Shown: positions 3,578 to 10,025 of the stretch, in pieces
How positions within the stretch are numbered: the stretch's first letter is position 1
Layout of the letters: each line of letters starts with the position of its first letter
IMG/VR virus record: IMGVR_UViG_3300035228_001078
DNA: 64,000 bases
Reading direction: 5' to 3' (one strand)
From: a virus
Position numbers and translations under genes: made by a program
The notes under the pieces: generated by a model
Told to the model about the DNA's origin: nothing
Databases searched by the model: none
The model's input: the letters and a program-made list of their open reading frames with translations, nothing else

Positions 3578-4886
3578 TTTTTGGTTTTCCTCTGAGTCCG
3601 TGTGAATCTCTAATTACCCGCATAGCGGTATATGACTGATTTGGAAGGAGATAATGGGTCATCTCTTTGATAATATATAGTCCACTAAGTTGATTGTCCC
3701 ATTTACCTTTCTTTTTATCAGATACATCTGGGAAGTACAAATTGATCACATCACCCGCATTTAAGTTGGTATTTATTGGCACCGTAAGTGCCAATTGTTG
3801 TGACATAATTGTACTATACCGTGTGATTGATTGTGCAATATGATCTCCTGGGAAATCATTTATATCGGTGTTGACATCTCCCTTTTCACCTCCAAATGTT
3901 CCTCTACTAAGAATTTGAGTAATTTGACGAGATCCAAGGAAGTTAGCTGGTATATTATCTGGTTGTAGGTAATCAGGTAGTTTATCCTTCTTGCCTAGTT
4001 GTTGAGATGGTTCCTCATTAAATCTAGACACGATGAACTGAAATGTCACTGGGTCAAAAAACATTCTGTGAGATGAATACTCGCCCTTCGCCAAATTACC
4101 AGTAACATCATTGTCTGAAATGAGATTCCAAGTAAGAATGTTTGTAGCATTCTTAAGGTCATTATCTAGAGAGGTGCTGAGAGTCTGGACATAGCGATAC
4201 TGCTGTACACTATCCTTCTGCTGAACACCAGCCTTTATTATACCGTCTGGAGAGAGAAAATTAAACCCTGTGTGGGTTTGCCAAAAAAAGAATCCAGCAC
4301 TCTTACTCTTAGAATCTACAGGAATAGATCTCTTTGCTAACATTGTCAGCAGAGTAAATGGCTTTCTTAAGTTACCAAAAAAGTTATATGAGTTTTCTGT
4401 AGGTTCTAAAACATCAATCTTGACAGTTCCAAGATATTTCATAATAGATGCTACAGATTTATCAATAGTTTGGTTCTTAAAAAGAATAGGAACTCTTACC
4501 TGTTCATTGATAAATGCTTCTTTAGAAACTAAGTGAAGATCAAATACTTCTGATTTTTTCTCAGTATATACATTGCTTATACCATTAACATACATCTCAA
4601 GTTTACTAAAGACTTGCTTCCCCTTTATAGCTTTTTCGACAGGGGTATTAAACCCAATAATTACTTTTTCTCCACCCCTAATTGGTAGACCGTTAAAGAC
4701 ACCTCTTGACCCATCAATAACTGTACCAGTACTGGTAACTCTTACCTTTGCTGTATAGATTGGGGAAAATATATCTTCAAAGTACTGAAACTCAATGATG
4801 CCACCGATCAGACTGACGGTTGTTTTACCGTCATTAGATGTAATATCAAATTTACTATAGACCGATGGTCCGTTTGCGGCTGCCAT
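3570..4886 (-). CDS. baseplate hub protein (gp27-like)
   Basis: YFEDIFSP, GFFFWQT..GFNF, L.AGDVI and SGLYII..MTH motifs of gp27/gpD-type hubs; position upstream of gp5. Confidence 0.65.
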   Translation of the reverse strand: MAAANGPSVYSKFDITSNDGKTTVSLIGGIIEFQYFEDIFSPIYTAKVRVTSTGTVIDGSRGVFNGLPIRGGEKVIIGFNTPVEKAIKGKQVFSKLEMYVNGISNVYTEKKSEVFDLHLVSKEAFINEQVRVPILFKNQTIDKSVASIMKYLGTVKIDVLEPTENSYNFFGNLRKPFTLLTMLAKRSIPVDSKSKSAGFFFWQTHTGFNFLSPDGIIKAGVQQKDSVQQYRYVQTLSTSLDNDLKNATNILTWNLISDNDVTGNLAKGEYSSHRMFFDPVTFQFIVSRFNEEPSQQLGKKDKLPDYLQPDNIPANFLGSRQITQILSRGTFGGEKGDVNTDINDFPGDHIAQSITRYSTIMSQQLALTVPINTNLNAGDVINLYFPDVSDKKKGKWDNQLSGLYIIKEMTHYLLPNQSYTAMRVIRDSHGLRGKPKNG

Positions 4887-6577
4887 TAGGTAAACTGGCT
4901 ATTGTATCTTTTTATCTTTGCGAGGATGTCCCCATCTGGTAACACTGGAAAATTAGGAGTGTTAGTAGATCCACCACCTCCCGCTATAACCGTAGTTCCA
5001 CCACCCTTATTTAGAGGAGGTAATGGGAAGGGAACAGTGATAATCTTAGGATTGGCAGAAAGATTGATGTTTGCTGGAGGTCCGACAGTTGGATCAGGAC
5101 CAATGGGATTATTCTTTCCACTAAAGTCTGTCATAAATTGATTATCACCGTCACCACCTCTCCAAGATGTTCCTGGCATTCTTCCATTTGCATCAGCTGC
5201 AACATCAGTAGCGGGATTACCATCACTATTGACTGATCTAATTGTTGCTGGACTACCTCTGAACTGTGTTGCTCCTTTTACAAGTTCTGCTGCTTTCTGT
5301 CTCATGGATTGATTTCTCATATCCTTTATAGTTTGTTCAATATCAGTAACAGACACACCAGCCCATCGGGCAGCTTCTTCTGCAGTAGTAATTTTTCTAA
5401 ATGCACCAGCATCTCTTGCTATTGATACTCCAGCAAACTGTCCACCTGCAGCTAAAACATTAGTGTAGGACTGCCCATTTGCACTTGCTCTATTAGCAAC
5501 CACTTGTAAAACATCAATGGCAGCTTGACCTTTTGCACCCTCAGTAAGTAAACCAGCAGCAACTCTGAACTCTTCACCAGTGCCACTAGTACCTTGAGTC
5601 TGTGTACGAGGTATTACTGTGTTTTGTGGTTGTACTGTTGGTTTTGGTTCTGGTTCTTGAGTAGTACTGCCACCAGTGTTCACCTCAGGTGGTGGTTCAT
5701 TTTTAGTGGATGGTTGATACTGAGGAGACTTAGAGATTGATTGTAACTGTTTGGTCGCATCTTTCATCCCCTCGTCATACTGTTTGTTAGTAATCTCTCC
5801 ATCTTTAAGTTGCTGTTTGAGACTCGTAATTGATTTTTTTACCGAATCAACAGTCTGCGGTTTTTGTGCTGGATCACCTTCTTCAGTTACATTTTGACCT
5901 TGAGATACGGTCTCTGGTACAGGTGGCAGCCCCATTCCAGCTCTAACTTTATTAAATTCTTCAGCACCAGCATCTCTCATCTCTTTGATAGTTTTTTCTA
6001 TCTTATCAGTAGTCTGAAAGAAATCTGTTTTTGTTTTCTCTACTGCAGATTGTGCCTCATCAATTTCTCTCTTAAGTTTACCTTCACTATCAGTGAAATC
6101 AAAGTTCTTAATATTCTCTACACCTTGTTTAACAACATCCACCATCTCCGAAAACGCATTTTTCAAATTATCAACAAACCTCAACGCACCGTCAAAGGTT
6201 TCCTTGATAATTGATGCTACTTTTTGTGCGTAGAATATAATTTCTGGCAGTTTTGTTACTAAGAATCCCAGTAATAATGCTCCAGCAGCTCGTAACAGTC
6301 CACCAAAGAAACTTTTTGTTCCTGACATGGCACCTCTTATGCCACTAGTCAATTTTTTCATCGGTTGCTTAAGCAACTCTATTTTATTTTCTTGCTCGTT
6401 CTTCTTTCTATTATCAGCAATTACATGCTCTAGTGTCGTAACTCTACTATTTCTAGTCAGATCTGCACGAACACTCTTACCCAAAGATTTTCGGATACCT
6501 TGAGTAGTTTGCCTTACCGCAAGTAAACCAAAATCAACAATATCTAATGCTTCTGTTGTTGGGATAAAATTATTCAT
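4886..6577 (-). CDS. tape-measure/hub-associated protein with C-terminal SleB-like cell wall hydrolase domain
   Basis: helical N-half; LLTEG...IDVLQVVANRA...YTNVLAAGGQF resembles the Hydrolase_2 motif. Confidence 0.55.
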   Translation of the reverse strand: MNNFIPTTEALDIVDFGLLAVRQTTQGIRKSLGKSVRADLTRNSRVTTLEHVIADNRKKNEQENKIELLKQPMKKLTSGIRGAMSGTKSFFGGLLRAAGALLLGFLVTKLPEIIFYAQKVASIIKETFDGALRFVDNLKNAFSEMVDVVKQGVENIKNFDFTDSEGKLKREIDEAQSAVEKTKTDFFQTTDKIEKTIKEMRDAGAEEFNKVRAGMGLPPVPETVSQGQNVTEEGDPAQKPQTVDSVKKSITSLKQQLKDGEITNKQYDEGMKDATKQLQSISKSPQYQPSTKNEPPPEVNTGGSTTQEPEPKPTVQPQNTVIPRTQTQGTSGTGEEFRVAAGLLTEGAKGQAAIDVLQVVANRASANGQSYTNVLAAGGQFAGVSIARDAGAFRKITTAEEAARWAGVSVTDIEQTIKDMRNQSMRQKAAELVKGATQFRGSPATIRSVNSDGNPATDVAADANGRMPGTSWRGGDGDNQFMTDFSGKNNPIGPDPTVGPPANINLSANPKIITVPFPLPPLNKGGGTTVIAGGGGSTNTPNFPVLPDGDILAKIKRYNSQFT

Positions 6578-8202
6578 GAATCAAACATTGCTGCTGTAAA
6601 ATCTCGATAGAAATTATTAGAGTCTGAAGTAAAGATATTTGGGATATTCATATCTGCTATGGTTGTGGTGGGGAAGGATGTCATCGAAGGCTCATCTTCA
6701 GATTCAGTTGTGAATGGAAGAATGTTTAAGTTAATATTATCGTCCATATCAGCAACATCTAGATTGCTTGCCTTGGCAAAGTTAAAACCTTTGATTGCAC
6801 TCTGAGTATCATCCATACTAAATTTTAGCATGTCTGGTGCTCCACCTCCAGATGCTGGTGTTGAGGAAACTTGCTGACTTTGAGTTTGAGTATCTGAGGA
6901 CTGTGGAGCAAGAAGATTATCTGGCGCGTTCTTCAATGTATTCATTCTACTTTCTACTCTATCAATAGATTTCGCATCAAAATCTGGGAAGTCTCCAAAA
7001 CCAAAACCTTTGAATCCAGGATCAAGTGTCTTTTTGAAGAATCCAGCATCTCCACCCATAACAAAGGCAAATGTCTCTCTTCCTTGTGGAGATAAAGAAC
7101 TTCTTTGACTCTTGATAAAATCTTGAGAAGCAGAAATCTGCTTACCCAATTGTTCCATCTTTGCCTTCAGCTTTTCTTTCTCATCAGGATCAGTTGTCGA
7201 ATCATGTGCTAACTTAGTAACATCATACATCTCCCTATAATTTTTTATCTTCGACATCGCTGCTCGCATGTTATTGAACAGTGCCTTATCTGCCTCCGAT
7301 ATATTCTTACCAAGAACATATGCATATGGACCTTTACCATCCATAGCTTCTCTTATTCTATCCATCTCCTGGCGCATTTGCTGCCGCTCACCTTTAACAT
7401 CAAACATCCCGTGTTCTTGGAGATGATCTTCATGGAGTTTTTCTAACTCTCTTAGTGTTGCTTCTGGTCCAACTGTTGCCATTCTTCTCTGCACTTCTTT
7501 AGAAGTTGGATTATAGCTTTCAAAACCACTGGTCTTTTCTAATAAGTAATCACTCAATGCTAATCCACCAAGAGCAACTGCTGCTCCAAGCCACACATAT
7601 GGGTTTACAATTAGACCAAAAATAGCAGGCAAAGCTCCTAAAATAGTTCCAGCTAATGCTCCAGCAGCACCTAGAATCAAACCAATGCCACCATTAAGAG
7701 CAACAAATATACCAGCGCCGACAGCGAGTGCTTGTATTAAATCATTCTTTAAAGCTTCTAATGATTCTTTGTCGCCCTCTGCCCATGCAGTCAAAGCGTC
7801 AATCGCTTTCATTCCGACAAATCCAAAGAACAGAGCTTTGAGAGCATCCATGATTTTCCCAAATGGACCCTGAATCTTCTGCTTCATTACCTCAATAGGT
7901 TTGATGAGAGAATTCTTTATCTTTGTTCCTAAGTTAGATTCTACATCTTGTATTCTTGACTCTTGTCGTTCTTGCCGTAATTGTTTCTCGTCTGCTTTAT
8001 CTTCTGATGCTTCTTGAGTATCTCTTCGTATTAAAAGATCAGCAATCGCTCTAAGATTGCTTCTGATCGCTAAAATATTTTTATTAAGACCGTTATACTG
8101 CTTCTCAGAGACATAACCAGCAGGAACCCCAGGGTTTACTACAGTTCCCTCTGGTGTCCCTGGTTGCCCTGGTGGAAGTAATTTTGTACGATCAATTGCC
8201 AT
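6574..8202 (-). CDS. tape-measure-like protein (gp29-like)
   Basis: coiled coil plus a long Gly/Ala hydrophobic segment; position after gp26/gp51. Confidence 0.55.
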   Translation of the reverse strand: MAIDRTKLLPPGQPGTPEGTVVNPGVPAGYVSEKQYNGLNKNILAIRSNLRAIADLLIRRDTQEASEDKADEKQLRQERQESRIQDVESNLGTKIKNSLIKPIEVMKQKIQGPFGKIMDALKALFFGFVGMKAIDALTAWAEGDKESLEALKNDLIQALAVGAGIFVALNGGIGLILGAAGALAGTILGALPAIFGLIVNPYVWLGAAVALGGLALSDYLLEKTSGFESYNPTSKEVQRRMATVGPEATLRELEKLHEDHLQEHGMFDVKGERQQMRQEMDRIREAMDGKGPYAYVLGKNISEADKALFNNMRAAMSKIKNYREMYDVTKLAHDSTTDPDEKEKLKAKMEQLGKQISASQDFIKSQRSSLSPQGRETFAFVMGGDAGFFKKTLDPGFKGFGFGDFPDFDAKSIDRVESRMNTLKNAPDNLLAPQSSDTQTQSQQVSSTPASGGGAPDMLKFSMDDTQSAIKGFNFAKASNLDVADMDDNINLNILPFTTESEDEPSMTSFPTTTIADMNIPNIFTSDSNNFYRDFTAAMFDS

Positions 8203-8371
8203 TAGCTTGTTGTGCCTTTAAATTCTGTTCTTCAATGTGTGATTGCAACAGAGTTAAATAGATCTCTCTTTCCCAAGGGATCATATTTTCAAGTTCACTC
8301 AAGCTATATTTATGATGCTGCACTAAGGCGAAATTGATCTTGTAATATGATACAAGATCCTCATGCAACAT
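8192..8371 (-). CDS. gp51: baseplate hub assembly catalyst gp51-like, 59 aa (not in ORF track)
   Basis: own translation MLHEDLVSYYKINFALVQHHKYSLSELENMIPWEREIYLTLLQSHIEEQNLKAQQANGN; the MIPWEREIY motif is typical. Confidence 0.85.
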   Translation of the reverse strand: MLHEDLVSYYKINFALVQHHKYSLSELENMIPWEREIYLTLLQSHIEEQNLKAQQANGN

Positions 8372-8373
8372 CG

Positions 8374-9087
8374 CTAACTGAAAAAACTCGCTAATCCCTC
8401 AAGTACTACAGCATTTTCTTCGCCAGTGTTTGGGTTCTCAACAACAATAGTATGACTAAGCTTAGGCATAGTCTCAAAAAACCTCTCAACTTGTTTAAAC
8501 TGAGCTGAATTTAACTGTTCAATGAATTGAATCAATTCTTTCTTTGTGCTATCTTTTGCTTCCCACGATTCTTCTTCCGAAAAAATCTGGTCAATACTAC
8601 CAGCAATCACATCGAATGACTGTTCTAGTTTGTCACCAGCACCAAAGTTTTGCGCGATAAACTCACTTAGAGACGGATATCTCATACGCATTGTCAGTGT
8701 ATCATCCAGTTTAATATCTGGATTGTGATCTTCGTGATACTTGATTTTAATCTCATCAATAGCAATACTTACAGGAACTTTTGTAGTTCCATCGTCTTGA
8801 CAAGTAATGAGCAAGTCAATGGTTTCTCCAACAGACTTACCACGAACATTCAAGAACAGGTACTCAATGTCAAAAGTAGATAGTTTATCTACTTTGATGC
8901 CACGAGTCAAAATACATGACGAAAGGACATCTTTAATAGCTCTTCCAATATCAGAGAGATCATCACTCTCCATTGCCATGATAAGAACTTTTTCTTCTTT
9001 AACGAGAAAAGGTCTATATTTTACTTTTCTTTTTGATGATGGCAGTGTCAACTCATAAGTTGGTGTTGCAATCGTTGGTAAAGGCAT
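8374..9087 (-). CDS. gp26: baseplate hub subunit gp26
   Basis: MPLP..ATPTYEL.LPS, YRPFLVKEEK, FDIEYLFL..RGKSVGE, EGLASFF. Confidence 0.9.
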   Translation of the reverse strand: MPLPTIATPTYELTLPSSKRKVKYRPFLVKEEKVLIMAMESDDLSDIGRAIKDVLSSCILTRGIKVDKLSTFDIEYLFLNVRGKSVGETIDLLITCQDDGTTKVPVSIAIDEIKIKYHEDHNPDIKLDDTLTMRMRYPSLSEFIAQNFGAGDKLEQSFDVIAGSIDQIFSEEESWEAKDSTKKELIQFIEQLNSAQFKQVERFFETMPKLSHTIVVENPNTGEENAVVLEGLASFFS

Positions 9088-9110: not shown

Positions 9111-10025
9111 TTATTGTTTGGATGGCCAATATGTACTACCAGAGTAGTCGATTCCATCAGCAAGACCGCCCTTGTAATTGAAATTAAAGTCTCCAGTGAA
9201 AGCGTTGGTTTTGATTTTGGGATCATAATAGTTCTTATTCATATCATACTTAGAGTAATCAATATTAAGATCAGAGCCACCAAAATCACCAAACTTCATT
9301 TTTGATTGTCCTACAGGACTGCTGCTCCGTTTCGGGTTAGTGTTAACGAACTGGAATGGATCGTTATACTTTCTAAGTTGACCAGATCTATACGATCTAC
9401 TCAATTTATCTAGTCCACCAAAGAAGTGCCTGTCATATGTGAATGTGACTGACAACTCTAGCAATCTACTTTGATCATAAGAAACTGTTATTGGTGCAAG
9501 ACTCCTGGGAAAAGCATTTACATATGTGTATTCTACATCATGCTTATGATCTTTGTCAAATTTTTGAATACGCAAAGTTTCACACTTATAGTCTACAGGA
9601 TATTCCATCCTGTGATAGTAAGCTCTTCTAGTTGGATTCTCTGCCCCACCACTAGAAATAAATTCCTGCCACAACTCAAAAAATCTAACAACCCGATACT
9701 TATCATCGACTATGAAAGACATAGTAAAGTCAGGATAAATCCTTGTATGGGCATATTTCTGAATGATTCCCATAGCATGTCCAGACACTTGCGCCGTTGC
9801 AAATGATGTTCCTGGTAAGGAAGCAGTTTTACATAAGAGACCAAGATCTCTGAATATAAATTTATTAGTTACTTCATCATCTCTGTCTGTAATAAACTTG
9901 ATGAGCTTTGAAGGTAAGGACTGAAAGAAGACCTCATAGTGACTTGTAGTCGCTACTTCTTGAAAAAGTTTGCTAATAGATTGGGTCTGTATGCGTCTTG
10001 GATCTCTGTCCTTGATTAACCCCAC
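9111..10025 (-). CDS. baseplate tail-tube initiator (gp54/gp19-like fold)
   Basis: LLC..ASLPG, FFELWQ, Y.YVNAFP..L..I and L.VTFTY tube-family motifs. Confidence 0.65.
   Translation of the reverse strand: MGLIKDRDPRRIQTQSISKLFQEVATTSHYEVFFQSLPSKLIKFITDRDDEVTNKFIFRDLGLLCKTASLPGTSFATAQVSGHAMGIIQKYAHTRIYPDFTMSFIVDDKYRVVRFFELWQEFISSGGAENPTRRAYYHRMEYPVDYKCETLRIQKFDKDHKHDVEYTYVNAFPRSLAPITVSYDQSRLLELSVTFTYDRHFFGGLDKLSRSYRSGQLRKYNDPFQFVNTNPKRSSSPVGQSKMKFGDFGGSDLNIDYSKYDMNKNYYDPKIKTNAFTGDFNFNYKGGLADGIDYSGSTYWPSKQ

Follow-up and report, generated by a model that had tools for sequence, protein, structure and literature searches.

The 64,000-nucleotide (nt) stretch of viral DNA considered here, IMG/VR virus record IMGVR_UViG_3300035228_001078 (the window in what follows), carries on its minus strand the genes gp26 and gp51, and the subject of this study is their junction, with its candidate site for -1 ribosomal frameshifting. 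The open reading frame (ORF) of gp26 (8374..9087, minus strand) encodes 237 amino acids (aa) in the 0 frame, and matches the T4_baseplate family PF12322 over residues 8-236 with 242 bits, against a cut-off of 24.5 (E 7e-72), as well as phrog_150 (E 4e-77). The gene ends with the codons GAG GGA TTA GCG AGT TTT TTC AGT TAG, within which T_TTT_TTC (8380..8386, minus strand) forms a slippery heptamer in the X_XXY_YYZ register, spanning the codons AG[T TTT TTC], and is the proposed -1 slip site; the 0-frame stop TAG (8374..8376, minus strand) follows one codon past the heptamer. Two bases after this stop lies the ATG (8371-8369) from which gp51 is usually annotated as an ORF of 59 aa (8192..8371, minus strand), and which is hence in the -1 frame. 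This frame is free of stops from 22 nt ahead of the gp26 stop through gp51 and, read from 8386, gives FFQLAMLHEDL... up to the stop at 8194-8192, an extension of 62 codons, such that a fusion of gp26 with gp51 would comprise 236 + 3 + 59 = 298 aa. The predicted junction peptide of this fusion spans ...LEGLASFFQLAMLHEDLVSYYK, and its counterpart in cyanophage S-PM2 ...LEGLQSFFRISMFYNNLENYYR. The -1 frame segment as a whole, FFQLA together with gp51 (8192..8386, minus strand), matches phrog_634 (E 1.5e-26), while the 59-aa gp51 also matches positions 239-279 of phrog_150, the profile of gp26, which was the first hint that both ORFs belong together. Upstream of the slip site, the Glu-Gly codons of an LEGL motif spell a Shine-Dalgarno (SD)-like GAGGG (8396..8400, minus strand), 9 nt from the heptamer (10 nt for GAGG); no purine-rich SD is found in the 15 nt preceding the gp51 ATG. 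The first-pass annotation, made from the letters of the window, had described both genes with their frames, the in-register heptamer, the 298-aa stop-free fusion, the SD-like GAGG 10 nt upstream and the absence of an SD before the gp51 ATG, and all of this is confirmed on the sequence.

The motif TTTTTTC occurs 25 times in the window, where 16 occurrences are expected, and by itself is therefore not rare in this AT-rich DNA, so that the weight of the case rests on conservation. A second copy lies within gp26 at 8579-8585 (minus strand), where it is read as ATT TTT TCG; being out of the X_XXY_YYZ register, it is no canonical slip site.

Conservation was followed in two sets of uncultured relatives. 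The close set holds 80 relatives whose gp26 is 62-70% identical to that of the window (with the window 81 sequences, 79 of them distinct), and the divergent set holds 80 loci with 35-50% protein identity, seeded from a homologue that is 35% identical to window gp26. In the close set, TTTTTTC stands at the same place in 80/80 relatives and the gp26 stop lies 10 nt past the heptamer start in 81/81 sequences. All seven heptamer positions are invariant in these 81 sequences, three of them wobble positions, where neighbouring wobble positions show an entropy of 1.4-1.6 bits. The heptamer is likewise present in register at all 80 divergent loci, as T_TTT_TTC in 53 and as T_TTT_TTT in 27; at one of them (L091) it was recognised on inspection and the 0-frame stop lies farther downstream. 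Taken over both sets, T_TTT_TTY thus occurs in the same register in 160/160 related loci, with the gp51 frame offset by -1 in every one, and the -1 frame is open from the heptamer into the gp51 segment in all relatives. The extension runs to 28-68 codons over both sets (38-68 in the divergent set, in which 78 loci carry the gp51 core motif). It had been anticipated that heptamer and -1 register would be kept despite synonymous freedom, as proves to be the case; neither a variable offset, nor non-slippery Phe codons, nor -1 frame stops occur among the 160 loci. This conservation is far beyond chance. At ten divergent loci (L090, L096, L098, L111, L135, L143, L158, L159, L161 and L169) the 0-frame stop is found 31 nt past the heptamer start rather than 10, and the short form there has a longer private tail, encoded in a different frame by nucleotides that also encode the N-terminus of the gp51 segment.

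The strict maintenance of the heptamer bears on the simplest alternative, namely that no recoding takes place, the run reflecting protein constraint together with AT-rich codon bias, and gp51 being a dispensable or separately expressed remnant. It is true that the Phe-Phe pair persists at the protein level, T4 included, that 70% of Phe codons are TTT, and that T is the most frequent third base (43%). From such codon bias, however, NNT TTT TTY is predicted in approximately 0.43 x 0.70 = 30% of independent lineages, where 160/160 loci show it. The codon ahead of the run is AGT, TCT, AAT or GCT in the close set, to which the divergent set adds GAT and GGT, so that five amino acids are covered while the third base is T in all 160 loci. 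Furthermore, the second Phe is encoded by TTC in 80/80 close relatives, although this is the rarer codon (gene-wide TTT:TTC of 711:303), and the gp51 segment, with a mean column identity of 81%, is under clear purifying selection. On this sequence evidence an absence of recoding is scarcely credible and already contradicted by the comparative data.

A second alternative holds that two separate proteins are all that is made, gp51 being translated from its own ATG by termination-reinitiation and the T run representing conserved Phe-Phe codons. This reading can draw on the close set, in which 77/81 sequences retain the gp51 ATG at an unchanged position (it is absent in L039, L040, L046 and L061), and on the database records viewed, which annotate two genes or omit gp51, and none of which joins them. 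By contrast, 74/78 divergent gp51 segments contain no Met within ten codons of the slip, indicating that there the segment is reachable solely from gp26, and an ATG at the gp51 position is missing from several isolates as well (ACG-2014d, Aeromonas avDM6 and Ochrobactrum OC). With so many relatives devoid of a start codon, separate initiation cannot be the sole route to gp51. The -1 frame codons ahead of the ATG are, moreover, conserved in length and matched in T4 gp51, T4 has the segment only in fusion with a gp26-like domain and spells the Phe pair with the non-slippery TTC TTT, the variable codon ahead of the run ends in T at every locus, and the gp51 ATG is without an SD. Exclusive production of two independent proteins is accordingly very improbable.

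Named isolates extend the pattern beyond metagenomic sequences. The heptamer is present in 10/11 T4-superfamily isolates with the adjacent gene layout, namely in the cyanophages S-PM2, P-HM2, S-SRM01 and ACG-2014d, in Sinorhizobium phage phiM19 and Ochrobactrum phage vB_OspM_OC (T_TTT_TTT in both), in Stenotrophomonas phage Mendera, in the Vibrio phages KVP40 and F86, and in Aeromonas phage avDM6. Synteny is shared as well, with the order tube-like gene, gp26, small -1 ORF and large gene recurring in cyanophages and in rhizobial, Stenotrophomonas, Vibrio and Aeromonas phages. In the 12 GenBank records inspected, no joined gp26-gp51 coding sequence (CDS) is annotated. Where gp51 is annotated, it is labelled "baseplate hub assembly catalyst" or "hypothetical protein"; in P-HM2 (L171) it is cut to 31 aa from a late ATG, in OC (L085) a later ATG is likewise used, and in ACG-2014d (L082) and avDM6 (L089) it is left unannotated. 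The mis-annotation in these four phages is due to the segment having no start codon of its own.

Fused ORFs do exist in the databases, and the fused proteins carry PF12322 and PF28602 (precomputed domains). Three of them, P0002 (299 aa), P0006 and P0011, were considered as natural fusions and rejected: each is a singleton on one metagenome contig with an irregular junction, and they most likely arose from one-base homopolymer indels in the assemblies. Fusions of this type were for these reasons not counted as evidence.

A natural control is provided by T4 itself. There, genes 26 and 51 are divergently transcribed, which makes read-through from one into the other impossible. T4 gp51 (249 aa) starts with a full PF12322 domain (residues 1-201, E 4e-52), as gp26 also has, and continues with a tail, and residues 200-245 of this protein align without gaps to the -1 frame of the window from the second Phe of the slip site onward (E 7e-8). 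The alignment includes the three codons preceding the gp51 ATG, Q-L-A in the window, which are matched by K-L-L in T4 gp51. T4 thus has in one frame what the window would make only by slipping. T4 gp26, to which window gp26 is similar over its full length (BLASTP E 5e-4), has no need to slip; it spells its Phe-Phe pair TTC TTT, which is non-slippery, and the -1 frame closes immediately. The fused T4 gp51 and the TTC TTT of T4 gp26 together provide the strongest single argument that the fusion is functional and that the heptamer is kept for slippage and not for coding. Most members of the family, including T4 gp26 and gp51 with C-T-C and C-P-E-C, contain two Cys pairs of zinc-ribbon type (consensus CxxC twice); window gp26 has lost them and reads TCQDDG and ENPNTG at the matching places.

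Given a product joined across the T run, the slip could in principle occur during transcription, with RNA polymerase adding one U on the run and the same two proteins resulting. The site is a homopolymer, and at 27/80 divergent loci the run comprises at least seven T's. Efficient transcriptional slippage needs runs of about 8-9, but the run has only six T's in the window and in 80/80 close relatives, with the seventh base invariably C, just where lengthening of the run would help the polymerase to slip. Strict codon register, an SD-like element and a hairpin at dnaX-like spacings are, furthermore, features of ribosomal slippage. Transcriptional slippage has been linked to U7 and A7 runs (PMC4066793), and the PRFect paper, in its passage on T4-like phages, gives the "other mechanism" as two separate genes and not as slippage. 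Slippage of the polymerase is consequently a quite improbable source of the long form. As to ribosomal slippage, Sharma et al. (PMC4066793) found that in E. coli few -1 motif classes match the efficiency of H_HH.U_UU.Y, the class to which U_UU.U_UU.Y belongs.

Candidate stimulators flank the heptamer on both sides. At the SD-like codon, GAG and not GAA is used in 69/74 distinct close sequences, where GAG accounts for 33% gene-wide, and the preference is also seen in the divergent set (17/27 against 21% gene-wide). Downstream, the close set shares a 10-bp stem (columns 54-63 with 73-82 of alignment A1), for which 89.9% of cells are paired, compared with 25-43% when the partners are slid. It includes three covarying pairs, one of them between an Ala wobble base and the middle base of a Glu/Val/Ala codon (UA 34, AU 14, GC 11, GU 5), and 0/500 shuffles reach the observed score. 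The 45 nt downstream fold with a mean of -12.6 kcal/mol in the close set, versus -4.5 in control windows of the same genes. RNAalifold on a 72-sequence alignment returns a weak 5-bp core only; the full 10-bp stem was found by per-sequence folding. In the window the position of the stem-loop is 8345..8373 (minus strand), 6 nt past the heptamer, with 8373-8364 pairing with 8354-8345. A long alternative hairpin is predicted for the window alone (8314..8372, minus strand); it begins 7 nt past the heptamer and has a minimum free energy of -25.9 kcal/mol (z -2.4). Hairpins at 4-7 nt are also frequent among the divergent loci, but they differ from lineage to lineage and do not reach significance over the whole set.

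An AlphaFold2 model of gp26 from a 113-sequence alignment reached a pLDDT of 95.3 and was compared with 48,161 PDB chains by VIA-align. The top three chains, 3fgx (Z 7.7), 2ob9, the HK97 tail assembly chaperone (Z 7.6), and 3klu, YqbN (Z 7.3), each align over 85-86 residues to residues 1-92 of the model, and the next match has a Z of 5.0. Since the three leading chains all fit one domain of the model, and 2ob9 is expressly named as a tail assembly chaperone (TAC), the N-terminal domain of gp26 is taken as having the tail-assembly-chaperone fold. A profile search of PDB sequences gave no match, and NCBIfam has no model matching any of these proteins. For the long form, a predicted fold of P0002 as fusion surrogate shows a disordered linker (residues 236-260) followed by C-terminal helices, which do not dock on gp26 with confidence, and a predicted complex of the gp51 segment with residues 1-215 of the tube-like core scored 0.00, a value that, obtained without controls, is uninformative either way.

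Directly upstream of gp26 lies a tail-tube-like gene of 304 aa (9111..10025, minus strand), which matches PF23849 Phage_TTP_2 (E 7e-15) and the "tail tube" family phrog_45 (E 1.5e-33); its product has no BLASTP similarity to T4 gp54. Downstream, a 542-aa gene (6574..8202, minus strand) is a candidate tape measure, with phrog_58 (E 1.3e-5) among its PHROG matches, and a large gene is syntenic with it in all isolates viewed. Of the gene order suggested by the first-pass annotation, with a tube-like gene ahead of gp26 and gp51 and tape-measure-like genes behind, the tube-like part is thus borne out by PF23849. The ATG of the 542-aa gene overlaps the final 11 nt of the gp51 frame (8192-8202), an arrangement suggesting that translation of the tape-measure-like gene is coupled to that of the rare long form or of gp51. 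For the gene past the tape-measure-like one, S-SRM01 (L083, 8133-10043) has an M23 peptidase annotation; its window counterpart (4886-6577, 563 aa) has no Pfam peptidase match and shows weak coiled-coil-type matches only.

A number of observations weigh against reading the locus as a single recoded chaperone gene with a stimulated slip site. Vibrio K364, alone among the relatives viewed, is without a canonical heptamer and reads ACG CTT TTT GCG TAA at this place; it may use P-site slippage on U_UUU or may have switched to separate initiation. In the same phage (L087, 3690-3730), the small -1 ORF opens with ATG ATG. Where the ATG is kept, free gp51 may arise by reinitiation as an additional product. 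As regards the stimulators, the SD-like element is missing in many divergent relatives, and the window has GAGGG but retains only 7/10 pairs of the conserved stem. Its own long hairpin (8372-8314) was considered as a conserved element and dropped, since only 64% of cells are paired in relatives. Stimulators are, then, probable in the close clade but uncertain for this genome, judging from the 7/10 pairs, the unshared hairpin of the window and the lineage-specific hairpins of the divergent set. For the fold, Z-scores of 7-8 are middling in absolute terms, and Foldseek returned no significant match for the gp26 model, with 3fgx, 2ob9 and 3klu among its top 25. Finally, the downstream 542-aa gene is only weakly tape-measure-like (PHROG E about 1e-5) and its product shows no BLASTP similarity to T4 gp29, so that this part of the suggested gene order stands on weak ground.

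Taking both sides together, we consider it highly likely, on the comparative sequence evidence, that gp26 and gp51 are one recoded gene, from which a short and a long tail (baseplate-hub) assembly chaperone are made by -1 frameshifting, and the heptamer is very probably a deeply conserved frameshift site making, in this T4-like cyanophage, both forms of the T4-superfamily chaperone. What the analysis shows is the anatomy of the locus and how it is conserved, the homology of gp26 and gp51 with their T4 counterparts, and a chaperone-like fold; that the slip occurs, how often, what the stimulators do and which partners are bound is inferred. In the proposed course of events, most ribosomes would terminate at the end of gp26, which gives the 237-aa short form (TAC-N). 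A fraction would slip back by one base, the P-site tRNA-Phe moving off UUU and the A-site tRNA-Phe off UUC to re-pair as UUU UUU, and would then read Q-L-A-M-L-H... through the gp51 frame to yield the 298-aa long form (TAC-NC), which would have its first 236 residues in common with gp26. In close relatives the slip site would be embedded in a three-part, dnaX-like cassette of GAGGG, heptamer and stem-loop. By analogy with lambda G/GT, the common N-terminal domain would coat the tape-measure protein, and tube or tube-initiator subunits would be brought in by the rare C-terminal extension.

The first-pass annotation had proposed a G/GT-type chaperone pair, which it took to be undescribed for T4-like phages. 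The pairing is supported by the in-frame equivalent in T4 gp51 and by the fold match of gp26; the supposed novelty does not hold. As the citing papers put it in the passages concerned (PMC10885494, PMC12846349), the TAC genes of T4-like phages were identified by Vladimirov, Gautam and Davidson (Virology 2022, 566:9-15), to whose work knowledge of poly-T -1 signals in "TAC-N genes of T4-like phages" is also credited; PRFect paraphrases it to the effect that some T4-like phages have a short gene and a longer fused gene, with no frameshifting. Judged by these passages, the gp26/gp51 chaperone frameshift is already known in substance and little is added as discovery, since the literature already has both the identity of the chaperones and the poly-T signal. 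If the published work mainly concerned the two-gene solution of T4, it would be new that the -1 frameshift is ancestral and near-universal in the T4-superfamily phages of cyanobacteria, rhizobia, Vibrio and Aeromonas, and that in cyanophages it lies in a dnaX-like cassette; under this reading, which seems rather doubtful as a whole, gp51 would also be mis-annotated in hundreds of deposited genomes.

If the frameshift interpretation is true, gp26 and gp51 would properly be annotated as a single CDS with ribosomal slippage, alongside the short form. T4-like phages, long seen as the exception, would then obey the rule of long-tailed phages, that a short and a long chaperone are made from one start. 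For the study of U-rich -1 frameshifting in cyanobacteria, the locus would also be a clean system supplied by nature, with T4 as a built-in negative control. Cyanobacteria make little use of SD pairing.

Among known systems comparable to this locus is lambda G/GT, reportedly a case of a -1 frameshift conserved in tail chaperone genes (Levin, Hendrix and Casjens 1993; Xu, Hendrix and Duda 2004). The window proteins have no detectable sequence similarity to it, and gp26 exceeds gpG by approximately 100 residues and has an additional alpha/beta domain at its C-terminus. The slip sites differ as well, T_TTT_TTC here versus G_GGA_AAG in lambda, and in gp26 the 0-frame stop comes one codon on; moreover, the phage here is T4-like, has a contractile tail and carries its true tube gene, gp19, at another place. 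A contractile tail is shared with P2, where E/E+E' (Christie et al. 2002) is likewise said to involve a -1 frameshift in a chaperone gene upstream of the tape measure, at a slip site that is reportedly T-rich and T_TTT_TTG-like; by sequence, however, the P2 proteins belong to another family, and E is much smaller. Structurally, residues 1-92 of the predicted gp26 superpose on 85-86 residues of the HK97 TAC (2ob9), B. subtilis YqbN (3klu) and rbstp2171 (3fgx), at identities of 7-10% and over the N-terminal 40% of gp26 only.

With regard to the arrangement of the signals, there is a likeness to E. coli dnaX, whose X_XXY_YYZ heptamer is preceded at about 10 nt by an internal SD-like element and followed at about 6 nt by a stem-loop, spacings similar to those seen in the close relatives of the window. 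The dnaX heptamer is A_AAA_AAG, in place of the U-rich one found here, and the stimulators here are putative. Furthermore, the shifted ribosomes in dnaX stop almost immediately and thus make a shorter protein, whereas the shift in gp26 would make a longer one. The protein families themselves are those of T4 gp26 and gp51, which likewise form a short and a long protein with a common N-terminal domain; T4, however, uses two separate genes for this pair, whereas the window has one locus, from which both forms would be obtained by the predicted slippage.

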